Source of the DNA: an uncultured Oxalobacter sp.
GTDB lineage: Bacteria; Pseudomonadota; Gammaproteobacteria; Burkholderiales; Burkholderiaceae_D
Direction: 5' to 3'
NCBI GenBank assembly: GCA_964534155.1
Contig: CAZHQM010000002.1
Coordinates: 1 to 37,718, forward strand
DNA: 37,718 bases
Part shown: one piece after another, positions 5,960 through 35,612 of the stretch
Position numbering within the stretch: position 1 is the first letter of the stretch
Layout: each line of letters opens with the position of its first letter
Program-made: the position numbers and the translations under genes
The notes under the pieces: generated by a model
What the model was told of the DNA's origin: nothing
Databases searched by the model: none
What the model saw: the letters and a program-made list of their open reading frames with translations, nothing else

Positions 5960-6286
5960 ATGAAGAAAATCCTGGCAGGTCTGGCTGTTGCCTCGCTGGC
6001 TTTGGGCTGTGTATCTACATCAGTTGCTGGCAATGTGGATAGTCAGTGCCGGTTCAATGGCAAACGGCTTTATGGCAAGGTGAAGGTTGTTGATTCTTTT
6101 CCTGACATCAAGGTTCAGGTTGTCAGGTCTTTCCCTGACCTGAAAGTGAAGAAGGTCAGCAGTTTTCCTGACAGCTGTGGGAAATGGCAGTTTGTCGATT
6201 CTTTCCCGGACATCAAGGTCAAGTTTGTGGATTCGTTCCCTGATGTGAAGATCCAGTATGTGGATGCGTTTCCTGGGAAGCCATGA
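5960..6286 (+). CDS. Secreted small repeat protein (VxxVDSFPD units), resembles 7(1)-knot family
   Basis: Signal peptide, AGGAG RBS, six (D/R/S)(S/A)FP(D/G) repeats around a CGKWQFV centre. Confidence 0.75.
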   Translation: MKKILAGLAVASLALGCVSTSVAGNVDSQCRFNGKRLYGKVKVVDSFPDIKVQVVRSFPDLKVKKVSSFPDSCGKWQFVDSFPDIKVKFVDSFPDVKIQYVDAFPGKP

Positions 6287-6311
6287 TGTTTTAGGCAGGA
6301 TATGAAAACAG

Positions 6312-6337
6312 AAAAGCCGCCCATTGGACGGCTTTTT
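6312..6337. terminator. Bidirectional intrinsic terminator
   Basis: AAAAGCCG-loop-CGGCTTTTT between convergent genes. Confidence 0.75.
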
Positions 6338-6356
6338 GCATGTGGATGCCTGATGC

Positions 6357-6944
6357 TTATTTAAGCAGCATGGCTTTTTCGACAGGTTCAGACCAGATGA
6401 AGCCTTTGTCATTCTTGGTTGGGTCGAATTTGTCACGACGCATATCCATGCCCCAGCCACCACGGCCAGAGGAGGTTTCTGCCCAGCCGACGAGGCTGAT
6501 TGCGACAGGCAGTTTGACTTTGGTTGCCTTAGGGTCTTTCAGCTGTTCATAGCCCTTGACTGCGACCTGTTCAAGGATTCGCTGTGCAGGAGGAGAACAG
6601 TCTTCACGCAGGTAGTCACGTGCTTTCGGTGTTGCGAGGACTTTCTGCCAATCGGTTTGACCTGGTGCGGTTCTGTGCAGGCCTTTGAAGAACTGGTAGG
6701 CGCCAGTCTGTTCATCGTTGAAACGGATTTCGAATTCGTACTGGGCGATGTAGCTCCAGATGCCTGGCAGTGAGTCGGTCTTCTTGTATCCGTTGACTTT
6801 GACCCATTTACACTGGTATGCCTTGCTGAGCATTTCAGTCATATCGTCATCGTTTGGTCTTGCGCAGCCTGTCATGGAGATTGCGACAGGAGCAAGGCAG
6901 AGGCATAAGAGCGCTGATCTGTATTTCTTGAGGTTGAATTTCAT
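6357..6944 (-). CDS. Hypothetical lipoprotein
   Basis: Basic N-terminus, hydrophobic stretch, MTG-C lipobox-like site; 195 aa. Confidence 0.7.
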   Translation of the reverse strand: MKFNLKKYRSALLCLCLAPVAISMTGCARPNDDDMTEMLSKAYQCKWVKVNGYKKTDSLPGIWSYIAQYEFEIRFNDEQTGAYQFFKGLHRTAPGQTDWQKVLATPKARDYLREDCSPPAQRILEQVAVKGYEQLKDPKATKVKLPVAISLVGWAETSSGRGGWGMDMRRDKFDPTKNDKGFIWSEPVEKAMLLK

Positions 6945-7091
6945 GGGTATTCTCTGTCAGACGTGTTGGTCAGACCGTTAAATTGAAAAACTGTTCCATT
7001 TTACTGAAAAAAATCTTCAGGAAACAGTGAATCGGCAGGGATGATGTTTATCGTTGACCGTTTTTGCATCATCCCGTGCGGAATATGTGGG

Positions 7092-7454
7092 TCAGATGCC
7101 CCACATGATGTTCTTTTCTTCGCGGATGGCGGCTTTCAGCATCTGCAGGAAAGGATAACTCCGGGTTGCGAAGCCGATGCGTGGACCATCTTCTTTTTCT
7201 CTTTCCTCATTGCCATTGACAGGTTTCTTCGCTGCCTTCTGTTCCAGTTTCACCCGTTCGAGAGTGGTCATCTGTTCCAACTGTTTGAGTTTTTCAATCT
7301 GGTCTTCGATTTTCTTTGCTGCAGCTGGTGCCTCAGCTGCGGTGATGACGCCTTTTTTCAGATCCTTGCCGAGCAGGTCAAGGATTGGTTTTGCGTCTTT
7401 TTCAATCATCATGATGTCGGCTGCCGCACGGCATTTGAATACGATGAGTGCCAT
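7092..7454 (-). CDS. DUF1840-family protein
   Basis: LIVFKCRAAADIMM...LLGK...GVIT...RSYPFLQML...MWG pattern; AGGAG RBS. Confidence 0.75.
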   Translation of the reverse strand: MALIVFKCRAAADIMMIEKDAKPILDLLGKDLKKGVITAAEAPAAAKKIEDQIEKLKQLEQMTTLERVKLEQKAAKKPVNGNEEREKEDGPRIGFATRSYPFLQMLKAAIREEKNIMWGI

Positions 7455-18200: not shown

Positions 18201-18962
18201 ATGAAACCGAATCGTTTGGGCAAAGCCCTGATTTCAACACTTTTGATGACCGCCTGTGCGCTTCCATTTTCGGTACAGGCAGATTCTCCAGACAATCTGG
18301 ATATCATGTGGTGCCGTGCCAATCTCCAGAAAACACCTTTCTATAAGCAGAAGTCTGTCAATTCAGGTACCGTGAAGTATCTGGAAAAGAATGATCTCGT
18401 CTATATCGCCAGCCGCGAAACCGATAACACCGGCAATGGCTGGTTTGAGGTTGTCTGGCCATTCAAGGGTTGGATGCGCGAAAAGGATTCCTGGTTCCCA
18501 TACAACCGCACCTATAACCCGAACAATCTGCCGATTTATGAACGTATGTCTATCCGTCTGGCGACGGATATCGGGAATTATCCTAAAGCAACCATCAAAA
18601 AACTGGGGCAACCAAAAAAGCAGGAATACGCTGTTCAGAATTTTGCAGGCAGGGTTGTTGTCCAGACTCTGACCTGGAAGGGGATGGTCATCGAGTATAT
18701 GAATTCGTACCGCAAGGAGGAAGATGCCTGGATCAACAGGATTGCCGCTGGTCCCGGGGCAAAGATCAGTTTTGGTCCAATCCGTGTCGGAGACAGCTCG
18801 GCAAAGCTGGTTGAATATGGCATCAGTCAGGGTGAACCTCTGATTCATGGTGAGGTGCGGCTGGAAGAGGGAGCTGAAAAATTCCTGTTTATCATCCGTG
18901 AAAACCGGGTTGCGAGCATGCATTACCAGTTCGGGAATGATGGCTATCTGTGGTTACCTTGA
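18201..18962 (+). CDS. Secreted protein with SH3b-like N-terminal domain (paralog 1)
   Basis: Signal peptide ending VQA; SVNS...L...GWFEV...KGWM pattern. Confidence 0.65.
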   Translation: MKPNRLGKALISTLLMTACALPFSVQADSPDNLDIMWCRANLQKTPFYKQKSVNSGTVKYLEKNDLVYIASRETDNTGNGWFEVVWPFKGWMREKDSWFPYNRTYNPNNLPIYERMSIRLATDIGNYPKATIKKLGQPKKQEYAVQNFAGRVVVQTLTWKGMVIEYMNSYRKEEDAWINRIAAGPGAKISFGPIRVGDSSAKLVEYGISQGEPLIHGEVRLEEGAEKFLFIIRENRVASMHYQFGNDGYLWLP

Positions 18963-18995
18963 TAGGGTTGAAATCTAGAATGCAAGGGGATGTTT

Positions 18996-19742
18996 ATGAA
19001 ACTGAATCGATTGGGCAAAGCGTTTGCCAGTACTGTTCTTGCGGCATCATGTGTGTTGCCATTTGTGGCACAGGCAGACTCTCCAGATAATCTGGATATT
19101 GTCTGGGCACGGACTGCGGGAGAAAAAGCACCGATTTACAGCCAGAAATCGACTTCATCGCGGGTTGTTCAGCAGTATCCCAGCAAGTATACGGTTTACC
19201 TGACAGGTGAGGAAACCGATGCTAAAGGCAACGTCTGGTATGAGGTTTCCTGGCCAATGAAAGGATGGCTGAAGAAGAGTGACAGCTGGTTTGCGCCTCA
19301 GGTCAAGGGGTACTATCCCGACAATCTGGCATTGCCTGAGCGGTTGGCTGACCGCCTTGCGATTGATTTCGGGAATTATCCTCAGTCTTCTATTAAAAAA
19401 TTCGGCAAGCCGATGGCCCAGAAATATTGGACTGCTGGGGGCGTGATTTACCAGCAACTTAACTGGTCAGGACTGGAAATCCAGTACGAAAATTCATACA
19501 GGCGGGCTGAGGGGGCATGGATTTCTGCGTTGACTGTCAGCAAAGGTTCCAAATACAACTTTGGTCCTATCCATGTTGGAGATCCTGTCGAGAAGCTCGG
19601 TGAGTTCGGTATCGAGCGGCCTGCGGCTGATGGTGAGGTGACCATCGGTAATTATCAGGAGTTCCGTTTCATTATCAAGGGTGGAAAAGTCGATAGTATG
19701 AGTTACCGCTATGGCATTGAATTCCTGCCACCGAAGAAATAA
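18996..19742 (+). CDS. Secreted protein with SH3b-like N-terminal domain (paralog 2)
   Basis: Colinear similarity to the upstream gene (QADSPDNLDI, WPxKGW, NSYR, FGPI); ATG 18996 matches the paralog start. Confidence 0.65.
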   Translation: MKLNRLGKAFASTVLAASCVLPFVAQADSPDNLDIVWARTAGEKAPIYSQKSTSSRVVQQYPSKYTVYLTGEETDAKGNVWYEVSWPMKGWLKKSDSWFAPQVKGYYPDNLALPERLADRLAIDFGNYPQSSIKKFGKPMAQKYWTAGGVIYQQLNWSGLEIQYENSYRRAEGAWISALTVSKGSKYNFGPIHVGDPVEKLGEFGIERPAADGEVTIGNYQEFRFIIKGGKVDSMSYRYGIEFLPPKK

Positions 19743-26433: not shown

Positions 26434-26468
26434 AAAAACCTGATGCCTTGGTGGTGTCAGGTTTTTTT
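26434..26468 (+). terminator. Intrinsic terminator after gpsA
   Basis: AAAAACCTGATGCC-TTGGT-GGTGTCAGGTTTTTTT. Confidence 0.8.
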
Positions 26469-26498
26469 GAATCTACCGCAAGGATAAACAGGGTTGTT

Positions 26499-27167
26499 AT
26501 GGCGAAGAAAGACATTGTGTTCAGCTGTTCTGACTGTGCGGCATTGGGCTGCAAGGACAAGAATGAGAACAGATATCCAAAATTCTGTATGACTGACAAG
26601 CTCAGTGAAGAAGAGATTGCTCAGGTTCGCGATATTTATCTGCAGGATGAGAACAATACAGGTGAGATTTCTGTGCATTCTGCCTGCATTGAAAGTGAGT
26701 TCTACTGCCGGATGACCCGTGTCGAGGAGACCATCGAATTCATCAAACGGATGGGGTACAAGTACATCGGCATCGCAACCTGTGTTGGTCTGACTGCTGA
26801 GGCCCGTATGTTTGTGAAGATTCTGCGGGGTCTTGGTATCAAGAGTTTTACTGTTGGCTGCAAGGTCGGTGCTATCGACAAGAGTGAAGTCGGAGTACCT
26901 GAAGAAAAGAAACTGAACGGTGGTTCTGGTCATGAGTCCATGTGCAACCCGATCATGCAGGCGAAGGTGCTTGAGAAAGAAGGCACAGATTTCAATATTG
27001 TGATTGGGCTCTGTGTCGGGCACGATACGATGTTCCTGAAATATTCCCATGCACCGGTTACGGTGATGATTGTGAAAGACCGTGTACTTGGCCATAACCC
27101 TGTCGCGGCACTCTATGCGGCTGAGACTGGTTACTCACGGTTTAAGGATGCCCTGAAACTGAAATAA
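26499..27167 (+). CDS. DUF1847-family Cys-rich metal-binding protein
   Basis: CSDC, TRVEE, IATCVGL, CKVG, MCNP, GLCVGHD, VKDRVLGHNP; the upstream GTG lies inside the terminator. Confidence 0.85.
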   Translation: MAKKDIVFSCSDCAALGCKDKNENRYPKFCMTDKLSEEEIAQVRDIYLQDENNTGEISVHSACIESEFYCRMTRVEETIEFIKRMGYKYIGIATCVGLTAEARMFVKILRGLGIKSFTVGCKVGAIDKSEVGVPEEKKLNGGSGHESMCNPIMQAKVLEKEGTDFNIVIGLCVGHDTMFLKYSHAPVTVMIVKDRVLGHNPVAALYAAETGYSRFKDALKLK

Positions 27168-27544: not shown

Positions 27545-27573
27545 CCCCGTTGAGTTTTCCCAACGGGGTTTTG
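27545..27573. repeat. Left direct repeat (attL-like), also a terminator-like hairpin
   Basis: CCCCGTTGAGTTTTCCCAACGGGGTTTTG, identical to 35584-35612. Confidence 0.92.
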
Positions 27574-27587
27574 AGTTTATGTCGACA

Positions 27588-27797
27588 TTATTTAAGTAGA
27601 TATGGGTAATCTAGGTCCCTTTCTCCATTTTTAGGTCTGATTAAGAGATTGAAAAGATAGTGTTCTCTATCGAATGCCATCAGGCTAGTTCGACAGAAAT
27701 GCAGATGTTGGTGAAGTGTGTGTCGATATGCTCCATTCATGTTAAAAACTGCACCATGACAGCATATGAAGATAAGAGCGATTTGTAATTTTCCCAT
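27588..27797 (-). CDS. Possible small hypothetical protein (69 aa)
   Basis: CAGGAG RBS before ATG 27797; last in the leftward cluster; no recognisable motif. Confidence 0.35.
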   Translation of the reverse strand: MGKLQIALIFICCHGAVFNMNGAYRHTLHQHLHFCRTSLMAFDREHYLFNLLIRPKNGERDLDYPYLLK

Positions 27798-27892
27798 CAA
27801 TAACTCCTGTCTTGGTGGTTTCTTGGGTGTGTTTGAGAAGAGTGTTTGTTCTTGCAGGGAGGTTTCCTCTGTCCGCCTAGTTGGTTAATCAA

Positions 27893-28609
27893 TCAGTCCT
27901 GTACTTCTTCGTCTGAAGAAACCCACTTGCGGATGCTATATGCCACAGCACATGCAGCCCCAATGCCTCCAAGGACGGCCGCAACTGGGGCAAACGGTGA
28001 AACAGTTGCAATACCAAGAATGGCTTTTGCACCTAAACAGAGCTTTGCCCCGAGGGTCAGTTTCGTTGCCAACCCAAGAACAGAGGCGGCTCCACCAAAA
28101 AGAGATGTGGAACCAAACAGACCTGTTCCTGCCGCAATCTTGGAACCGAGGCCACAGAATGCAGAGAGCCCAGCTCCACCGAACAGCCATGCTCCAGCTG
28201 CTTTTCCTGAAACTCCGACACTCAGTGGAACGAGTCCAATTCCAACCTTGGCGATAGCACCAAGCCACCAGCCGATAAAGGCCATCAGCATCGTGACGAT
28301 CAGACCAGCTCCAACAATGGCAATCAGTTTCACCATCTGATAGAAAGCCACTGCCACAAAGATGTTGTAGATGAAATCGGCAACGAAAACGCCAGTGGCG
28401 ACTGAGAAAAATGCATTTGCCACTTTCCCAGCTCTGGTTCGGAGAAACTTCTTCATTTGTCTGATGGTTTCACGTCCATTCGTCCAGATTGCATCCATCA
28501 GCATCTTGATTTCCTTTGCCAGCTTTTTAAGTGCACCGAAGATGGCAGAGAAGATTCTGTCAAGGAGGCCCATGCCTTCGCCTTCACAGGAAATAATTTC
28601 AGTGTTCAT
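27893..28609 (-). CDS. Gly/Ala-rich multi-helix membrane protein of unknown function
   Basis: AAGGAG RBS; amphipathic basic N-terminus followed by ~160 aa of almost uninterrupted hydrophobic/small residues with GxxxG motifs. Confidence 0.75.
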   Translation of the reverse strand: MNTEIISCEGEGMGLLDRIFSAIFGALKKLAKEIKMLMDAIWTNGRETIRQMKKFLRTRAGKVANAFFSVATGVFVADFIYNIFVAVAFYQMVKLIAIVGAGLIVTMLMAFIGWWLGAIAKVGIGLVPLSVGVSGKAAGAWLFGGAGLSAFCGLGSKIAAGTGLFGSTSLFGGAASVLGLATKLTLGAKLCLGAKAILGIATVSPFAPVAAVLGGIGAACAVAYSIRKWVSSDEEVQD

Positions 28610-28750
28610 AATGAACTCCTTACATTAACTTGCCAGCGACATGGTCTTGCACTACCGCTGGCCATCGTTAAAACATCAGTCCGTGCTGGTGACATGAAAA
28701 TCAACCATGACCAGGACTATAATCGGGACAGGATTTGACCATCCTGATGC

Positions 28751-29929
28751 TCAGTTCCCTCCTTCCATATTGATTTGTTTTGATTTACGTTCTTTAATAG
28801 CCAGAGTGCGCAGATCATGGATGGTGACCATGTGGTTGAGGCGTTTGGTGAGATTCCGCATTTCCGTGTACTTGTTGACCAGTCCATGGAGGTTTCGTTC
28901 ACTGAGAATCTGGCGTTCGACGTACTGATCCAGCTTGATATCATCAGCCTCGGTCATCCGGGCAAGAATCTCTGCTTTCAATAAATGATCAGGGCGTTCG
29001 ATCAGCACTACCAATCCGGCTCTCAGACATTCCATTAACCGAGGTGTAATGCCAGGGATTTCATCGGGATACTGTTTGATGCTGAAAATGACAGGGATTT
29101 CTGCCTCAATATAAGCTCTGGCAATTACTTCCAATGCGTTCTGGGCTCCGTGTTTGCCAGCAAGCACATCAACATCTTCAACAATGAGGCAACGGAAAGT
29201 GCAGTATTGAATGATGAAATCCTCCTGTGCCCCTGCCCAAGCATCGAATGCCGCTGCAAAATCTTCACAATCGATATGACAGATTCGATATCCTTTTTCT
29301 GAGCTGAGCATGAAACCGCCATGCGCATGGACAAGATGGGTCTTGCCTGAACCTGACTCACCCCAGATGCAGACAGTCTTGTATTTAGCAATATTCTTTA
29401 AAGATTCATATGCCAGGCGGTTTGCGTCGCCCACTACATAATCCCGGTAAGAATGTGCAGGCATAAAGTTTGGCACTCCGTTATCCACAGAAACAGCTGA
29501 ATGTGTATCCTGAAGATTGTAAGAATCCTGCATTTCATGGAGACTTCTTACGCATTGTCGGTAATAGAGCCCCATCTTCCTGATTTCGGAATAGGTCTTG
29601 ACGGCGTCTTCAACCTCATAACGGGAACCTGATTTATTTTTTACAATCTGGCGAAAAAATTTCTCTTCTTTGTGCTCGACATTACGACTCTGACGCGCCA
29701 GCTCTTCATAATTGGCAAGCAATGCATTGAACTTTTGTTCGTCGAACAGCTTCCGACCATTGACGCAGACGGTTGTGCAGCTTTCCTCAAAGCCTTGACG
29801 GATTTCTGCCCTGATCTGACCCAGTGCCCGTTTGCCATCGGCAATCATGGACTTGGCTTTCAGAATCCGTTCAATTTGTTCATTCACTTCATCAGAAGTA
29901 GATTGCTGGAAAATGTTTTCTTTGTTCAT
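28751..29929 (-). CDS. DnaA-domain-III-like AAA+ protein with N-terminal coiled coil, no domain IV
   Basis: YVVGDANRLA, GESGSGKTHL (Walker A), LIVEDV (Walker B), YPDEI...RL...GLVVLIERPD; AGGAG RBS at ATG 29929 (frame open from 30076). Confidence 0.85.
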   Translation of the reverse strand: MNKENIFQQSTSDEVNEQIERILKAKSMIADGKRALGQIRAEIRQGFEESCTTVCVNGRKLFDEQKFNALLANYEELARQSRNVEHKEEKFFRQIVKNKSGSRYEVEDAVKTYSEIRKMGLYYRQCVRSLHEMQDSYNLQDTHSAVSVDNGVPNFMPAHSYRDYVVGDANRLAYESLKNIAKYKTVCIWGESGSGKTHLVHAHGGFMLSSEKGYRICHIDCEDFAAAFDAWAGAQEDFIIQYCTFRCLIVEDVDVLAGKHGAQNALEVIARAYIEAEIPVIFSIKQYPDEIPGITPRLMECLRAGLVVLIERPDHLLKAEILARMTEADDIKLDQYVERQILSERNLHGLVNKYTEMRNLTKRLNHMVTIHDLRTLAIKERKSKQINMEGGN

Positions 29930-30255
29930 TTCTTTCTCCTTCTTCTTGGAATCAATCTGGTCCATGGGAATCGCCAGATGAGTCCGATTACTACAACTGC
30001 CCAGAAGAACTTCGATGTGAAGACTCGGGCTAAGACAAACATGAGTGCTGTCATATGCTCTCCGATGTTTTTTCATCCCTTTGCTCAGTACTGCCTGTTG
30101 TTCATCCTTTCAGATTCACTGATCCACAATGTGCGTGAAACCCTCTGTTTCAACTGCCATTACCCGATTTCAGCGAAAACAATCCCCCTGACTGTGTTTC
30201 AGTCATATCAGATGGTTGGATGAATCCCTGCTAGTCGCGGGCAAGGGATGGTTGG

Positions 30256-30444
30256 TTAATGGATAGTGCGGCTTGCCTTATGCAGCTCATACAGAGGTCG
30301 GTCGCTGTCAGTCCGCTTGAAGTTGACTAAATCAAGGAATGACATCAGGGCAGCCATCAGGGCAGGATCAGGATTATCGTCCAGCACCTCTTCGAGGTTT
30401 TTCATGATTTCCTCTTTGGTAAGTTCGGTTGTGTCTATCTCCAT
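30256..30444 (-). CDS. Small acidic helical protein (62 aa)
   Basis: GAAGGA RBS; ATG 30444 lies ~10 bp after the upstream stop. Confidence 0.55.
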   Translation of the reverse strand: MEIDTTELTKEEIMKNLEEVLDDNPDPALMAALMSFLDLVNFKRTDSDRPLYELHKASRTIH

Positions 30445-30454
30445 GCTGAGTCCT

Positions 30455-31489
30455 TCACTTGGAATCTGTATGGCAGGATTGATGGGCATCAGTGAAGCCG
30501 GTCATGGATTCCATCAGATACATATCATGATGAAACTCTGGATCAATTGATCTTTGATGTGCAATGTCCTGAATCAATGCATGAACTTCCGTTCTTGTAT
30601 ATGCGGGAAATCGCGTGGCGATTTCAGTATTGTTCATGTTCAGCCCCTTGCTCATTAGGTACATTGCTGATCCGCGAATCTGCTGATGTCGGAACACCCT
30701 AGATCTGGACTGAAGAAGCTGTGGTCGCACATGATTGAAAGAACAAACTGCACTTTCAACGTGCAATGCACTTGCCTGTCCAATGCAAAGAGCATCTTTG
30801 ACTGTCTGGATGGAAACCGCGGTTCCCTCGCGTTTTGCAATGTTGATGGCAGGTGAAAGATGGCGTTCCAGTTCTCGGATATTCTCACTCCCAGTATGAG
30901 CAAGCAGATAGGCAGCGCCATGGTCAATCTTCACTCCCTGCTCTTTAGCTTTTTTCTGGATGATTTCAGCACGATGAGGAAGGCATGGAGTCAACATAGA
31001 CAGGATGTATCCAGACAGGAGAACTTCTTGGAATTCGGGGATGAAATTGGTAATTTCTTCCGATGTCATTGTGCCCGCGAAGATAAGCTGTTTCCCGTTC
31101 GCCAGAGAGTTGTCTGCAACCTTGGACAGAATCTGTTGGGCATGGGGCTGACCAATCAGGCCTTGGATGTCATCTACAATAAGGACGTCTTTACTGAAGC
31201 AGTCGTCATTATTGAGCTGTGCCTGCAGACCGCTGATATCAGCCCCAGAAAAAAGATGGATTCTTACTACTGGGTGATTTGCTCGGATCAGGTTTCCACT
31301 GGCATTCAAGAGGTGTGATTTCCCGCAGCCCTCAGGTCCCACGAGCACAAGCGGGCTGGCATAAGAGCCCAGAAGTGCGGCACAACAGATGCAAGCCGTG
31401 AATTCCGAGGCATCCAAGGAAGATGGCACGTAACTCTGGAATGTTTTGGTTGGATCAAGACCAGTTGTTATTGATTGTTTTTTTTGCAT
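30455..31489 (-). CDS. DnaA paralog (domains III+IV only, divergent)
   Basis: LDPTKTF, GPEGCGKSHL, LIVDDIQ, NIRELE; C-terminal LQSRSR...R..AMYL...EIATRF domain IV pattern; CAGGAG RBS. Confidence 0.85.
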   Translation of the reverse strand: MQKKQSITTGLDPTKTFQSYVPSSLDASEFTACICCAALLGSYASPLVLVGPEGCGKSHLLNASGNLIRANHPVVRIHLFSGADISGLQAQLNNDDCFSKDVLIVDDIQGLIGQPHAQQILSKVADNSLANGKQLIFAGTMTSEEITNFIPEFQEVLLSGYILSMLTPCLPHRAEIIQKKAKEQGVKIDHGAAYLLAHTGSENIRELERHLSPAINIAKREGTAVSIQTVKDALCIGQASALHVESAVCSFNHVRPQLLQSRSRVFRHQQIRGSAMYLMSKGLNMNNTEIATRFPAYTRTEVHALIQDIAHQRSIDPEFHHDMYLMESMTGFTDAHQSCHTDSK

Positions 31490-31522
31490 TTTGTATGTCT
31501 CCTGGATCAATGGATTTAATGA

Positions 31523-32179
31523 TTAGCCGATAAGCTCCTGATAGCCGATATCGTCATCCTCTGGATACCAGATGCAGTCGATTTCGAGTTTACGACAGCG
31601 ACGAAGACAGTCAGTGTAGGCATCGATGGTCAGGAAGTCAGACTTTAGATAGAGATGAAAGCCGACATCGCAGCAGATATTCCAGCCGTTATCGAAAACA
31701 ATACGACGCGCATGGAGTTTGTCGTCAAACTTCAGAATGCATTCAACGCCCTGCAGTCTGATGCTTTCAACCAATGTTTTCCAAGAGGCAAGATCCTGTT
31801 CAGGGGGAATCTCATAATCATGGCGAGTCAAAAAAGTAATACTGCTGAGAGATGGAACTTCCATCAGAAGCCGTGCGACTGTCTTGGCAAGCTCATATTT
31901 CACATATGGCTTACCAGCATGTGGCTCCTGGATAGTCATCTGAGTCGAGCCAATAGCTGCACGCAGAAGAATGCAATTGATAAAATCCAATCCTACTGAG
32001 CCCTCATCAATGGCCCAGTGGCATGGCCGGCACTCACGGAGGCATTCATCAGAGAGATAGTATTCAATCTTTTCATTACGGTCCTTAACAGGAGCGAACT
32101 CGACGGCATCGTTCTGTTTAGCACAAACTCCTGCACTAATCAGAGCAGACATCATTGCGGTTTCTGTATTTATTGACAT
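31523..32179 (-). CDS. MIT_C (MITD1 C-terminal) phospholipase-D-like domain protein
   Basis: IQEPH...ITFLT...LHARRIVFDNGWNICCDVGFHLY...LRRCR mirrors the family pattern DPY...HDREI.FDNGW.IK.GRGLD.F...LR.C (recalled). Confidence 0.7.
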   Translation of the reverse strand: MSINTETAMMSALISAGVCAKQNDAVEFAPVKDRNEKIEYYLSDECLRECRPCHWAIDEGSVGLDFINCILLRAAIGSTQMTIQEPHAGKPYVKYELAKTVARLLMEVPSLSSITFLTRHDYEIPPEQDLASWKTLVESIRLQGVECILKFDDKLHARRIVFDNGWNICCDVGFHLYLKSDFLTIDAYTDCLRRCRKLEIDCIWYPEDDDIGYQELIG

Positions 32180-32780: not shown

Positions 32781-33437
32781 ATGTATGATGAAATTGATTT
32801 TAGCATCAAGAAAAAATGGGCCAACAAAATCCGTAGAGACAAGTCAATCAATCCAGATTGGCAAGATTTCCGCATTCACGAAGAATTCGTAGATGGAGAC
32901 CATATTAATTTCAACAGTAAAATTGATGATGTGTATGAGGCAATAAGAATCATATTTACACATTTTTATGATTTTGGAACATTAATAAAATGGAAGGAAT
33001 TACAGGAATTCTTAGAAAAATGTTTAGAAACACAGATAAAACTGAAATTTGATGAACATTATTTTGATCGTAGAACAAAAATTGGACGCAAAATAACACC
33101 ATTAATATTAGCCTTTTACTCTTTGATTCCACTTATTAAGAATAAAAAAGACAAAGATATATTTGATTTAAAACACATATTAAAATCAGAACAAATTGAC
33201 TCGATATTGTTTTGTTGGGAAATAATCAGAAGAGCAGATTTATTTCAAAGAATAAATGGAAAAACGGGTTTTCTTGGACGCCCCAAAAACACCTTTTCGG
33301 TAAAGGAGGCAGAACTATTATCTGGATTCGGACATACCATAGTCTATAAGAAATTTCGTGCCCCCATCTCTCTAACCGCCCTGAAAGATTGGTTACAGGA
33401 AAAGAAAAGACTTCCGACATTTGAACCGTCTAAATAA
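32781..33437 (+). CDS. AT-rich hypothetical protein with C-terminal excisionase/AlpA-like HTH
   Basis: GAGGT/GGGA RBS; C-terminal TFSVKEAELLSGFGHTIVYK...ISLTALKDWL. Confidence 0.65.
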   Translation: MYDEIDFSIKKKWANKIRRDKSINPDWQDFRIHEEFVDGDHINFNSKIDDVYEAIRIIFTHFYDFGTLIKWKELQEFLEKCLETQIKLKFDEHYFDRRTKIGRKITPLILAFYSLIPLIKNKKDKDIFDLKHILKSEQIDSILFCWEIIRRADLFQRINGKTGFLGRPKNTFSVKEAELLSGFGHTIVYKKFRAPISLTALKDWLQEKKRLPTFEPSK

Positions 33438-33447
33438 GAAGCATAAT

Positions 33448-33960
33448 CTAATCAAAATTTAGGTCAGTTACTGGGCTGTCAACTTCAGCAACCCCCGCCA
33501 TCAGACACGTCGGTATTTCATATTCTGGTTTCACCCATTCAACACCGCATCGTTCTGACCAGCATTTCCATGCGACATAGAGTTCACGCATCTTGAGATC
33601 AATGCCAACAGCTCCATCTGGTCGATGATTAGATGGATGTCCTGTCGGTATTGATCCGGGATGTTCGCAGTTATGTGGATTTTCTCCCTTGTCCGCTCTA
33701 TGACTGTCAGGCATTCAACCAGATGCGTAGCAGTCATGTTCCACTTTGGAAAATGTCCATAATAAGAATGCATGATTTTCTCGCGGCCATGCCCCATAGC
33801 CTCACTAAGTTGCCGCAACTTTGCCTTCATGGTCTGTTTGTCCATTTGGTCCTTGATGCCGCCAAGGAATGAAGGTGCCACGCCAGTCTGGATTGCATGC
33901 TTCTCCGCATACTGGGCACGTAGCATGTGAGCATGGATCTGGAATCTGGTTCTATCGTTT
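33448..33960 (-). pseudogene. Truncated, frameshifted tyrosine integrase (catalytic C-terminal part)
   Basis: HMLRAQYA (H-x-L-R) and LSEAMGHGR...YYG; no N-terminal half; probable frame change near 33612. Confidence 0.7.
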
Positions 33961-34002
33961 GCCTTGTGGCTACAGTGAATCGGATTTGCCGCCACTAACC
34001 AT

Positions 34003-34034
34003 AAAAAAGCCATGCCAATTATATTGGCATGGCT
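34003..34034 (-). terminator. Intrinsic terminator of the toxin operon
   Basis: Minus strand AGCCATGCCAAT-ATA-ATTGGCATGGCT-TTTTT. Confidence 0.85.
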
Positions 34035-34067
34035 GGCATCAGCACGCATCGACCTGACTGCTATAAC

Positions 34068-34454
34068 TTAAAGCTCATAAGGACGGAGCAGATCATCTTC
34101 ATTGGATTCTCCAAGCAAGTAATCGATTGCTTTGATGTCGTCCTGAATTCTCTTCACAAGTTCCAGTTTATCTTTGCCTAAGACTAGCAGTCTCTGGAAT
34201 TTTTCCTGGAGCTTTTCCAATTTTTCGACATCGCCCCAAAATTTGCTCTTGGAATCATAGGAACTGTCGGTTCTGCTTTCGATTTCCCCGATGGTGTTTT
34301 TTGCCTTTCTTGCTTTAGCAGCCAGGTTAACCGCCTCTTCGATTTCATCCTTCATCTGATTGACTCTTTCAGCCCTAAGCTCGGATAGCGCCGCCATCTG
34401 AACTGGGCTCATCTCCAGTCGGTCTTTTGATTTGGTGTGACTTTCGTAGTCCAT
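34068..34454 (-). CDS. Charged coiled-coil hypothetical protein
   Basis: 128 aa, AGGA RBS, 17 bp downstream of the toxin gene. Confidence 0.7.
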   Translation of the reverse strand: MDYESHTKSKDRLEMSPVQMAALSELRAERVNQMKDEIEEAVNLAAKARKAKNTIGEIESRTDSSYDSKSKFWGDVEKLEKLQEKFQRLLVLGKDKLELVKRIQDDIKAIDYLLGESNEDDLLRPYEL

Positions 34455-34471
34455 TTTGATTTCCTATATTG

Positions 34472-34870
34472 TTAGTTGAACAAGCTTGCTGATGGAATGG
34501 ATGCATCAACAAGTTTCATGAGTGAATCTTTGCATTGGCGGGCAAGATCGCGGCAAAAGTGTGCATCGCGGGCCTGGGAGTCCTTACAACCGACCCTTAA
34601 GATATGCAGGATCTGATGTCCCAGCATCATGAAATAAACCCTGAGCCCAGGTTTCATCGACAGTATCATTTCGCTCACACCATCACCCAGTGGCCGGCAA
34701 TCGCCGAGATGACCATCAGCGGCTTGGTTCACACGTTTCTGGATACGAGCCTTACCACCCTGGACCGTGATTTTGTCCAACTGCTTTCTGACTTCGGGGT
34801 TGGCTGTTACCCGATATCCGCACTGAGATTCGCTGCCGTTTTTTCTAGGCTTTTCAAATTCTTCTACCAT
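34472..34870 (-). CDS. RelE/ParE-superfamily (Gp49/HigB-like) toxin
   Basis: KARIQKRV...GHLGDCRPLGDGVSEM...PGLRVYF...GCKDSQARD matches addiction-module killer proteins; AGGAGG RBS. Confidence 0.8.
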   Translation of the reverse strand: MVEEFEKPRKNGSESQCGYRVTANPEVRKQLDKITVQGGKARIQKRVNQAADGHLGDCRPLGDGVSEMILSMKPGLRVYFMMLGHQILHILRVGCKDSQARDAHFCRDLARQCKDSLMKLVDASIPSASLFN

Positions 34871-35578
34871 TCAATCCTCCTTAATATTACAGAAAGCATG
34901 GTAGCCCCAACGACAACATGTAATCAAGCAAAAATAAATAGTAACATATTGTTTTATATCGAAATGTTAAATTACGCTAGGTACATATAAAAGTACAGTT
35001 AAGAAAAGTATAAAATTTAAACTTATAAGCTGAAAGACATTAAAATAGGAAAGCCCTGCATTTATGGAAAAAAATTTTTCCGCAATATTTTGACACAACG
35101 CAGACGCTGATTGGGATTATTTATAAGTAAATATTGGTCGCAAAAAGTTGGTAAAAATCCAACAAGACCCGTATCAGGCGGCTCGCCAGCGAATCTGCCC
35201 CCCTCTACCCATGACGAAAAACAGGCTGTAGCTCACCCAGCTGGATCTCAGCATTGAACATCGACCTCACCATCCAGTACCTTCATGATGGCATGGTCGT
35301 TCTTCGTCAGTCCATCCAGCTTCGACTGCCAGTAATGCAGTGCTACTGGACGCTTATGGGTATGCCTCATGCGATTGATATCGCGTTCAGAATATCTTCT
35401 AGGCAGTCATCAGATGCTACTCATTCAGTTGCTATAACATGGACTGCGGGTGATGTGGCAGCATAAGCTAATGTTACTACTAAGGGTGGCAACTATTGGA
35501 CGATGAACTGCTTAATTTGTTCTGGTGAAATTTGGAATGATGAGAAGGCTGACGAGCGGAATATTTTCAAAGGCAAGG

Positions 35579-35612
35579 CAAAACCCCGTTGAGTTTTCCC
35601 AACGGGGTTTTG
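35579..35612. repeat. Right direct repeat (attR-like); perfect 13-8-13 inverted repeat, likely the glnE terminator
   Basis: CAAAACCCCGTTG-AGTTTTCC-CAACGGGGTTTTG, 15 bp beyond the glnE stop. Confidence 0.92.

Follow-up and report, generated by a model that had tools for sequence, protein, structure and literature searches.

The initiator DnaA is as a rule encoded once per genome and strongly conserved; its well-known short paralog is Hda. The stretch of DNA analysed here, the entire 37,718-nucleotide contig CAZHQM010000002.1 (hereafter the window) of the 1.77-Mb, 89% complete assembly GCA_964534155.1 of an uncultured Oxalobacter sp., carries an island with a putative operon (27588..32179) in which two DnaA paralogs (DnaA1 and DnaA2), both devoid of the arginine finger, are interleaved with the genes of a stand-alone MIT_C protein, a 42-amino acid (aa) membrane peptide and a Gly/Ala-rich membrane protein. 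The MIT_C protein, the peptide and the Gly/Ala membrane protein are the conserved, island-borne unit.

Several described systems share parts with this locus. The BrxL-HKD protein of BREX type 1 has this PLD-fold HxR domain too, there as here alongside an AAA+ ATPase in a mobile locus; for the C-terminal domain of BrxL, PMC12839542 predicts an endoDNase of the HKD type in which the motif is the variant HRD. The window domain, however, stands alone, its ATPases are of the DnaA clade rather than of the BrxL type, and membrane proteins are present. The 218-aa MIT_C protein lacks the N-terminal and ATPase domains that are fused to the HRD domain in BrxL-HKD, and PADLOC profiles matched no other brx gene (brxA/B/C, pglX, pglZ) among 10 island proteins and the peptide. 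The C-terminal PLD-like domain of human MITD1 belongs to the same family by profile, with the HxR motif common to both, but the window protein is bacterial, has no MIT domain and is encoded in an operon with DnaA paralogs. In bacterial dynamin-MIT_C fusions (P0013, P0061) the domain is tied to an NTPase and probably to membranes, whereas the window island contains no dynamin and its domains are on separate genes. Chromosomal DnaA (TIGR00362) shares with both paralogs the domain III fold, Walker A/B and sensor II, and with DnaA1 also domain IV; however, the paralogs reach 134 and 116 bits where the cut-off is 343.9, they lack domain I, the arginine finger, sensor I and the DnaA signature, and in DnaA2 a three-helix bundle precedes domain III. 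Hda (TIGR03420) is likewise a DnaA-domain-III paralog without domain I, but here the scores are 64 and 53 bits (cut-off, 194.8), and neither the N-terminal clamp-binding motif nor the arginine finger, both of which Hda needs (PMC5397184), was found in either paralog. The host genome has a separate, probable hda locus (contig C4), and its canonical dnaA adjoins dnaN and gyrB on contig C44; the paralogs are not beside dnaN.

All genes of the operon are on the minus strand. The MIT_C gene is followed after 33 bp by DnaA1, after a further 10 bp by the gene of a 62-aa protein (30256..30444; a called gene in the collection of approximately 15 billion sequences that was searched, with no significant family match and not found in 5 close genomes) and, 201 bp on, by that of the 42-aa peptide (29926..30054), the stop codon of which overlaps the DnaA2 start (ATGA). 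The Gly/Ala protein gene lies 141 bp after DnaA2, and a 70-aa open reading frame (ORF; 27588..27800, minus strand) 92 bp beyond it. The two short gaps and the ATGA overlap suggest one transcription unit. The initial annotation of this DNA had described co-oriented minus-strand genes, most with a ribosome-binding site (RBS) and the first three about 33 and 10 bp apart, inside a repeat-bounded island. Orientation and island hold, the gaps are exactly 33 and 10 bp, and Shine-Dalgarno-like sites precede every gene but MIT_C. Of the gene list, the genes that it named stand, but it missed the peptide, which is encoded (30054-29926) inside the supposed 326-bp gap before DnaA2; the 70-aa ORF, which lies within the span given there, has an RBS but is doubtful because its GC content at third codon positions (GC3) is 0.32 and its exact sequence is absent from the 15-billion-protein collection, and it has no family match. 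The five main proteins are singletons in that collection, except that MIT_C belongs to a cluster of two. The peptide has a single predicted transmembrane (TM) segment, a basic tail and a GGAG RBS, and its exact sequence is likewise absent from the collection. The Gly/Ala protein (27893..28609, minus strand; 238 aa) is predicted from hydropathy to be a multi-pass membrane protein, with a basic N-terminal region, a Gly plus Ala content of 29% and a hydrophobic stretch from approximately residue 60 to 225.

The assignment of the first gene (31523..32179, minus strand; 218 aa) to a PLD-like MIT_C protein was confirmed by a match to PF16565 (E 1.6e-16; 60.9 bits for a cut-off of 25) together with the HxR(x4)D motif of the PLD/HKD fold, H156-x-R158-x4-D163. 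The PADLOC profile of the BrxL C-terminal domain (PDLC02508) also matched (E 3.2e-12), over profile positions 506-693 of 698 only. H156 and R158, invariant in 39 of 39 homologs, are kept in the window protein, as are D163, G173, R193 and C195, so that a phosphodiesterase activity is plausible, though not assured. The best of the 51 other MIT_C representatives are 22-39% identical to it; fusions to BrxL, dynamin and S1 domains occur among the 30 that were scanned, and the sole solved relative is human MITD1 (2YMB, 4A5Z; profile E 1e-62 to 5e-65). A C-terminal PExxxIGYxE tail is present, among 52 matches, in the window protein and in that of a second genome of the genus (G005) only, and the MIT_C tree did not resolve the two as sisters. 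With the single protein as query no homolog was found in 150 family genomes, and the plasmid and phage search gave one match, a brxL.

That the operon encodes two DnaA-derived ATPases, as initially annotated, was borne out by the PF00308 matches of DnaA1 (30455..31489, minus strand; 344 aa; E 3.3e-13) and DnaA2 (28751..29929, minus strand; 392 aa; E 9.1e-22) and by their retained Walker A, Walker B and sensor II residues. DnaA1 consists of domain III and a weakly matching domain IV (PF08299, E 1.5e-5), with no domain I; DnaA2 has neither domain I nor domain IV and consists of a three-helix bundle (approximately residues 3-139) followed by domain III. Compared with 75 canonical DnaAs (E. coli numbering), both keep K178, T/S179, D236 and R334, thus the Walker A Lys, the Walker B Asp and the sensor II Arg, the Walker B pair in DnaA2 being ED rather than DD. 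On the other hand, R285 and D269, which are R in 75/75 and D/E in 75/75 of the canonical proteins, are replaced by V and T in DnaA1 and by C and K in DnaA2, and the V211 and R245 equivalents are changed. We take D269 and R334 to be sensor I and sensor II. In domain IV, DnaA1 keeps the R399 and R407 equivalents but has lost D433, H434, T436, H439 and A440, the last five being presumably the DnaA-box signature, the roles of all seven residues being assumed here. Neither paralog has domain I or the domain IV signature of an initiator. According to PMC6868365, R285 mediates the head-to-tail oligomerisation of DnaA, and V211 and R245 bind single-stranded DNA.

Identity of the paralogs is approximately 22-30% with each of the DnaA groups, and between the two it is 20%. 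DnaA1 scores highest against the DnaAs of the host genus and family, and a quick tree was uninformative on the origin of the pair, both branches being saturated at length 10. Plasmid and phage searches with the paralogs returned DnaA-level matches only, annotated as dnaA where annotated. In the AlphaFold model of DnaA2 (predicted local distance difference test score, pLDDT, 76 overall) three long N-terminal helices are apparent; the top Foldseek matches are the DnaA structures 8BTG and 1L8Q (E approx. 2e-12), and the bundle alone (model pLDDT 64) matches generic three-helix bundles only (best Z 11.5; root mean square deviation 2.4 with 108 aligned residues).

Co-occurrence elsewhere, expected from the initial annotation, was found for part of the cluster: for MIT_C, peptide and Gly/Ala protein in G005, and for the DnaA pair in no other genome searched. 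PF16565 is present in two of 32 genus genomes, the host (G000) and G005, and the Gly/Ala protein in the same two, the G005 homolog being 30% identical (E 9e-19; 68.6 bits versus a window-shuffled maximum of 23.5). The gene directly after the G005 MIT_C (L099:5251-5373) encodes a peptide 55% identical (E 2e-17) to the 42-aa one, which makes the peptide gene the best conserved of the module between species; the profile built from these two sequences gave partial, chance-level matches only in the other 30 genus genomes. In G005 (83% complete, approx. 440 contigs) MIT_C and peptide follow a tRNA-Ser, that is, another insertion site, near one end of contig C299; the Gly/Ala gene is on contig C197, close to its start and among further TM and Ala/Gly-rich ORFs. 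Searches of the 31 other genus genomes, G005 among them, yielded no extra true DnaA paralog, so that a single lineage is known to have the full combination; the pair is either an add-on of that lineage or hidden in a gap of the G005 assembly. In word-index searches the query was the only match for MIT_C, for the N-terminal region of DnaA2 and for the Gly/Ala protein; such searches are insensitive, since they missed the 30%-identical G005 Gly/Ala homolog. Scans of the viral and metagenome collections found no relative, and the Gly/Ala profile found none in 400 family genomes (a draw without G005).

A second DnaA match was obtained in 5 of 400 order genomes, and in two of these it is a real domain III paralog, no closer to DnaA1 or DnaA2 than ordinary DnaA is. 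One (G335:C15; L134:1390-2202) is a stand-alone domain III in a frame of 271 aa, with 36% identity to the E. coli DnaA; it has lost the arginine finger and lies beside a Mutator-family transposase, apparently an independent case; in the other (G263:C58; L137:778-2007), which runs off the contig beside a HAD_SAK_2 gene, domain III keeps the finger and follows a novel N-terminus of approximately 250 residues. Other extra DnaA-like matches, from genus and order genomes, were rejected and proved to be Hda in G022, G201 and G347, a dnaA split over two contigs in G340, an ABC transporter in G016, and foreign canonical dnaA contigs in G019, a metagenome-assembled genome of the genus, in which the Firmicutes-like dnaA regions (C106 and C65; L037, L038) are probably binning contamination. 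An attempt to link the two G005 contigs through an att copy of the tRNA-Ser failed, the 16-nt match lying inside a housekeeping gene. On C197 (L111:1-850, 5967-7285) the Gly/Ala homolog comes after two other ORFs, one truncated, Ala/Gly/Pro-rich and membrane-like, the other of 65 aa with a TM segment; cas1/cas2-like genes were recognized by eye approximately 4 kb downstream. The host copy (C120) of the tRNA-Ser at which the G005 island is inserted adjoins a phage-type integrase-like ORF, also identified by eye, and the site is probably an integration hotspot in the genus.

Sequence variation among metagenomes allowed selection on the cluster to be estimated. Six runs from four studies carry pieces of the island, either near-identical or approximately 85-93% identical; none of the pieces spans the island, and depths are 2-5. 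Copies 85-90% identical are in runs X1, X3, X4 and X6, DnaA1 being represented by an 85%-identical piece in X6, and 35-bp short read matches and loose ends were treated as chance. Among the changes listed, 11 of 15 coding changes in the Gly/Ala protein, 16 of 29 changed codons in DnaA2 and 3 of 4 changes in the 62-aa protein are synonymous. Pooled over these three genes, 30 of the 48 listed are synonymous as compared with approximately 24% expected, the expectation being computed without transition bias (p 1.6e-8); a further 33 and 21 rows of the change tables lie outside this count. The Gly/Ala protein, DnaA2 and the 62-aa protein are thus under purifying selection, and the cluster is not decaying, as had been required for the initial annotation to hold.

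The proposal that the operon is an island-borne sensor-effector defence module is retained as a tentative reading, to which we give rather less than an even chance. Its core would consist of the PLD-fold HxR enzyme, the 42-aa membrane peptide and the Gly/Ala membrane protein, with the DnaA ATPase domains acting as switches. Both paralogs would bind ATP but, having lost the arginine finger, could not prolong a DnaA-type filament; DnaA1 may bind DNA other than the DnaA box via its altered domain IV, and DnaA2 may be held near the membrane with the translationally coupled peptide. Foreign replication or DnaA-like assemblies sensed by the paralogs would be the trigger, and cell arrest would follow from release of the membrane protein and/or of the phosphodiesterase MIT_C, which is probably a nuclease, the activity predicted for the BrxL HRD domain. 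A more specific version is doubtful: a mobile element would have domesticated the host-type initiator twice, as finger-less decoys that dock onto DnaA-type assemblies at the host oriC or at an invader origin and cap them, this event being coupled to a membrane effector and a PLD-fold nuclease in an abortive defence that senses replication initiation. Intact, selected genes, the partial co-occurrence and the lack of a match to a known system speak for the sensor-effector interpretation, as do the pilus-ATPase relic and the gene of a RelE-type toxin in the same island, whereas the proposed DnaA sensor was not found in the other genomes searched. As initially supposed, no described system matches: among the operon genes PADLOC recovered the complete gene set of no listed system, but only the partial BrxL match, to its C-terminal domain, and weak mad8 matches (E 5e-6 and 2e-4) due to the shared ATPase, and no description of this gene combination was found in the literature covered, supplements and most subscription papers being outside that scope.

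A number of observations weigh against a defence role. The core is made mostly of membrane proteins, which fits a lipid role as well as a DNA role, and within the island the operon has no known defence system beside it. The window MIT_C has changed the otherwise conserved Q93 (37/39), R172 (35/39) and T198 (32/39), and may be catalytically weak. One stretch of DnaA2 has 3 synonymous to 6 non-synonymous changes, and none of the changes listed is a coding change in DnaA1 or MIT_C, so that the selection figures cover three genes. In G005 the Gly/Ala and MIT_C genes are on different contigs, in orientations compatible with one island, and the single PF00308 match in that genome is its own canonical dnaA, so that the DnaA pair may be dispensable to the working of the core, with the qualification that the same search also missed the G005 hda.

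Other explanations account for different parts of the data. A fairly unlikely one is that the paralogs antagonize the host DnaA by accepting its arginine finger and capping the filament at oriC, thus stalling initiation, with dormancy or an element-controlled cell-cycle arrest as the outcome. In favour, both paralogs retain the K178, D236 and R334 equivalents and have lost R285, the mediator of head-to-tail oligomerisation (PMC6868365); the unrelated G335 domain III paralog beside a transposase is also without the finger, and the best scores of DnaA1 are with DnaAs of the host genus and family. However, the MIT_C and membrane genes are left unexplained, and with 26% identity to the host DnaA and, of the 57 near-invariant positions of domain IIIa, only 23 and 26 kept, the surfaces for contacting it may be lost too. 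Another explanation is a membrane-remodelling or lipid module, in which MIT_C would bind or hydrolyse phospholipid and the DnaA domains would be accessory ATP-dependent scaffolds. Membrane proteins are the products of two of the three conserved genes, the G005 Gly/Ala gene is adjoined by further small TM and Ala/Gly-rich ORFs, and the top MIT_C matches include dynamin fusions, the only solved relative being human MITD1, which binds membranes. This possibility is nevertheless unlikely: no dynamin or PspA gene is present in the island, and the DnaA1 domain IV with its R399 and R407 equivalents points to DNA. A similarly small chance is given to the paralogs being functional but independent cargo, for example with DnaA1 as an ATP-sensing transcription regulator, that entered an older MIT_C-peptide-membrane operon and shares no mechanism with it. 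They were not found in G005, and separate recruitments of DnaA domain III to non-origin loci, next to other neighbours, are seen in 2 of 400 order genomes; yet here the paralogs are interleaved with the core genes, with gaps of 33 and 10 bp and a stop-start overlap, and two different ones, only 20% identical to each other, are found in one operon.

The initial annotation had also considered a module that replicates the element. The paralogs would then be the replication initiator and the helicase loader of a now degenerate element, consistent with the altered DNA-recognition helix of DnaA1, with the pilus-ATPase relic and possible recombinase remnant in the island, and with 'DnaA-like' plasmid replicons, which are reported to exist. 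The alternative is weakened, and now quite improbable, because the arginine finger, the residues binding single-stranded DNA (V211 and R245 equivalents) and domain I are lost and iterons are absent, no 9-11-mer occurring three or more times in the non-coding island DNA. Furthermore, the sole perfect DnaA box lies within a coding region, and none of the island genes was recognized as a helicase, primase or relaxase. That the cluster is a decaying relic could be argued from the extreme divergence of its proteins, with saturated branches, and from the frameshifted pilus-ATPase remnant nearby, but all frames are intact, three genes show a synonymous excess and catalytic residues are selectively kept; decay is largely refuted and retains a very slight probability.

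A finger-less, selected DnaA pair, if part of a conserved MIT_C-membrane operon, would represent an initiator reused as a switch or inhibitor; Hda needs exactly the arginine that both window paralogs have lost. The MIT_C protein, as a minimal stand-alone bacterial form, is also a test case for the nuclease activity predicted for the BrxL HRD domain and for the MITD1 family. The general weight of these considerations is limited by rarity, since the full set is known in one lineage and the core in two species only.

The island itself is 8 kb long and lies between fdx and glnE, bounded by a perfect 29-bp direct repeat. The left copy (27545..27573) is a terminator-like hairpin after fdx and the right one (35584..35612) follows glnE; with up to 5 mismatches allowed, these are the only two sites in the 1.77-Mb assembly. 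The GC content is 0.444 in the island versus 0.507 and 0.543 in the flanks. In the relative G022 the fdx-glnE spacing is approximately 0.5 kb, with no island, and the repeat sequence itself is absent there. Flanking direct repeats and an empty site are thus found, as for an integrative element. No Rfam match reached gathering level, promoter-like sites are at chance level (14 versus 14.5 expected), and the listed holders of island sequence, which are animal gut metagenomes where a habitat is stated, include no RNA dataset.

Upstream of the operon and divergent from it, a low-GC orphan of 218 aa (32781..33437, plus strand; GC 0.318; no family match) is a possible regulator; its likeness to a 329-aa gene upstream of the G005 MIT_C is not significant (E 1.0). 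Contigs of runs X1 and X2 match only the part of this gene at 32992-33407 and continue into unrelated sequence, so that it may have another genomic context elsewhere. It is followed by a 172-aa ORF (33531..34049, minus strand) with no Pfam match at E 10 and not found in the other 31 genus genomes; its motifs seem to us to resemble the C-terminal half of a tyrosine recombinase, which no profile confirmed. A predicted coiled-coil orphan of 128 aa (34068..34454, minus strand) gave weak matches only, and adjoins a RelE/ParE-family toxin-like gene (34472..34870, minus strand; TIGR02683 above cut-off), next to which no recognisable helix-turn-helix antitoxin is encoded. The pilus-ATPase relic (35214..35358, minus strand) is the frameshifted C-terminus of a type IV pilus (PilQ-like, T2SSE) ATPase, with 73% nucleotide identity to a T2SSE gene that adjoins pilO and a secretin gene in G003. 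From this gene content the island looks like a remnant of a larger conjugative element. Elsewhere in the window, a 108-aa ORF of 11-residue tandem repeats with a 33-bp period (5960-6286), tandem paralogs 795 bp apart (18201-19742) and a DUF1847 gene (26448-27167), with a second copy 74% identical on contig C64, were observed.

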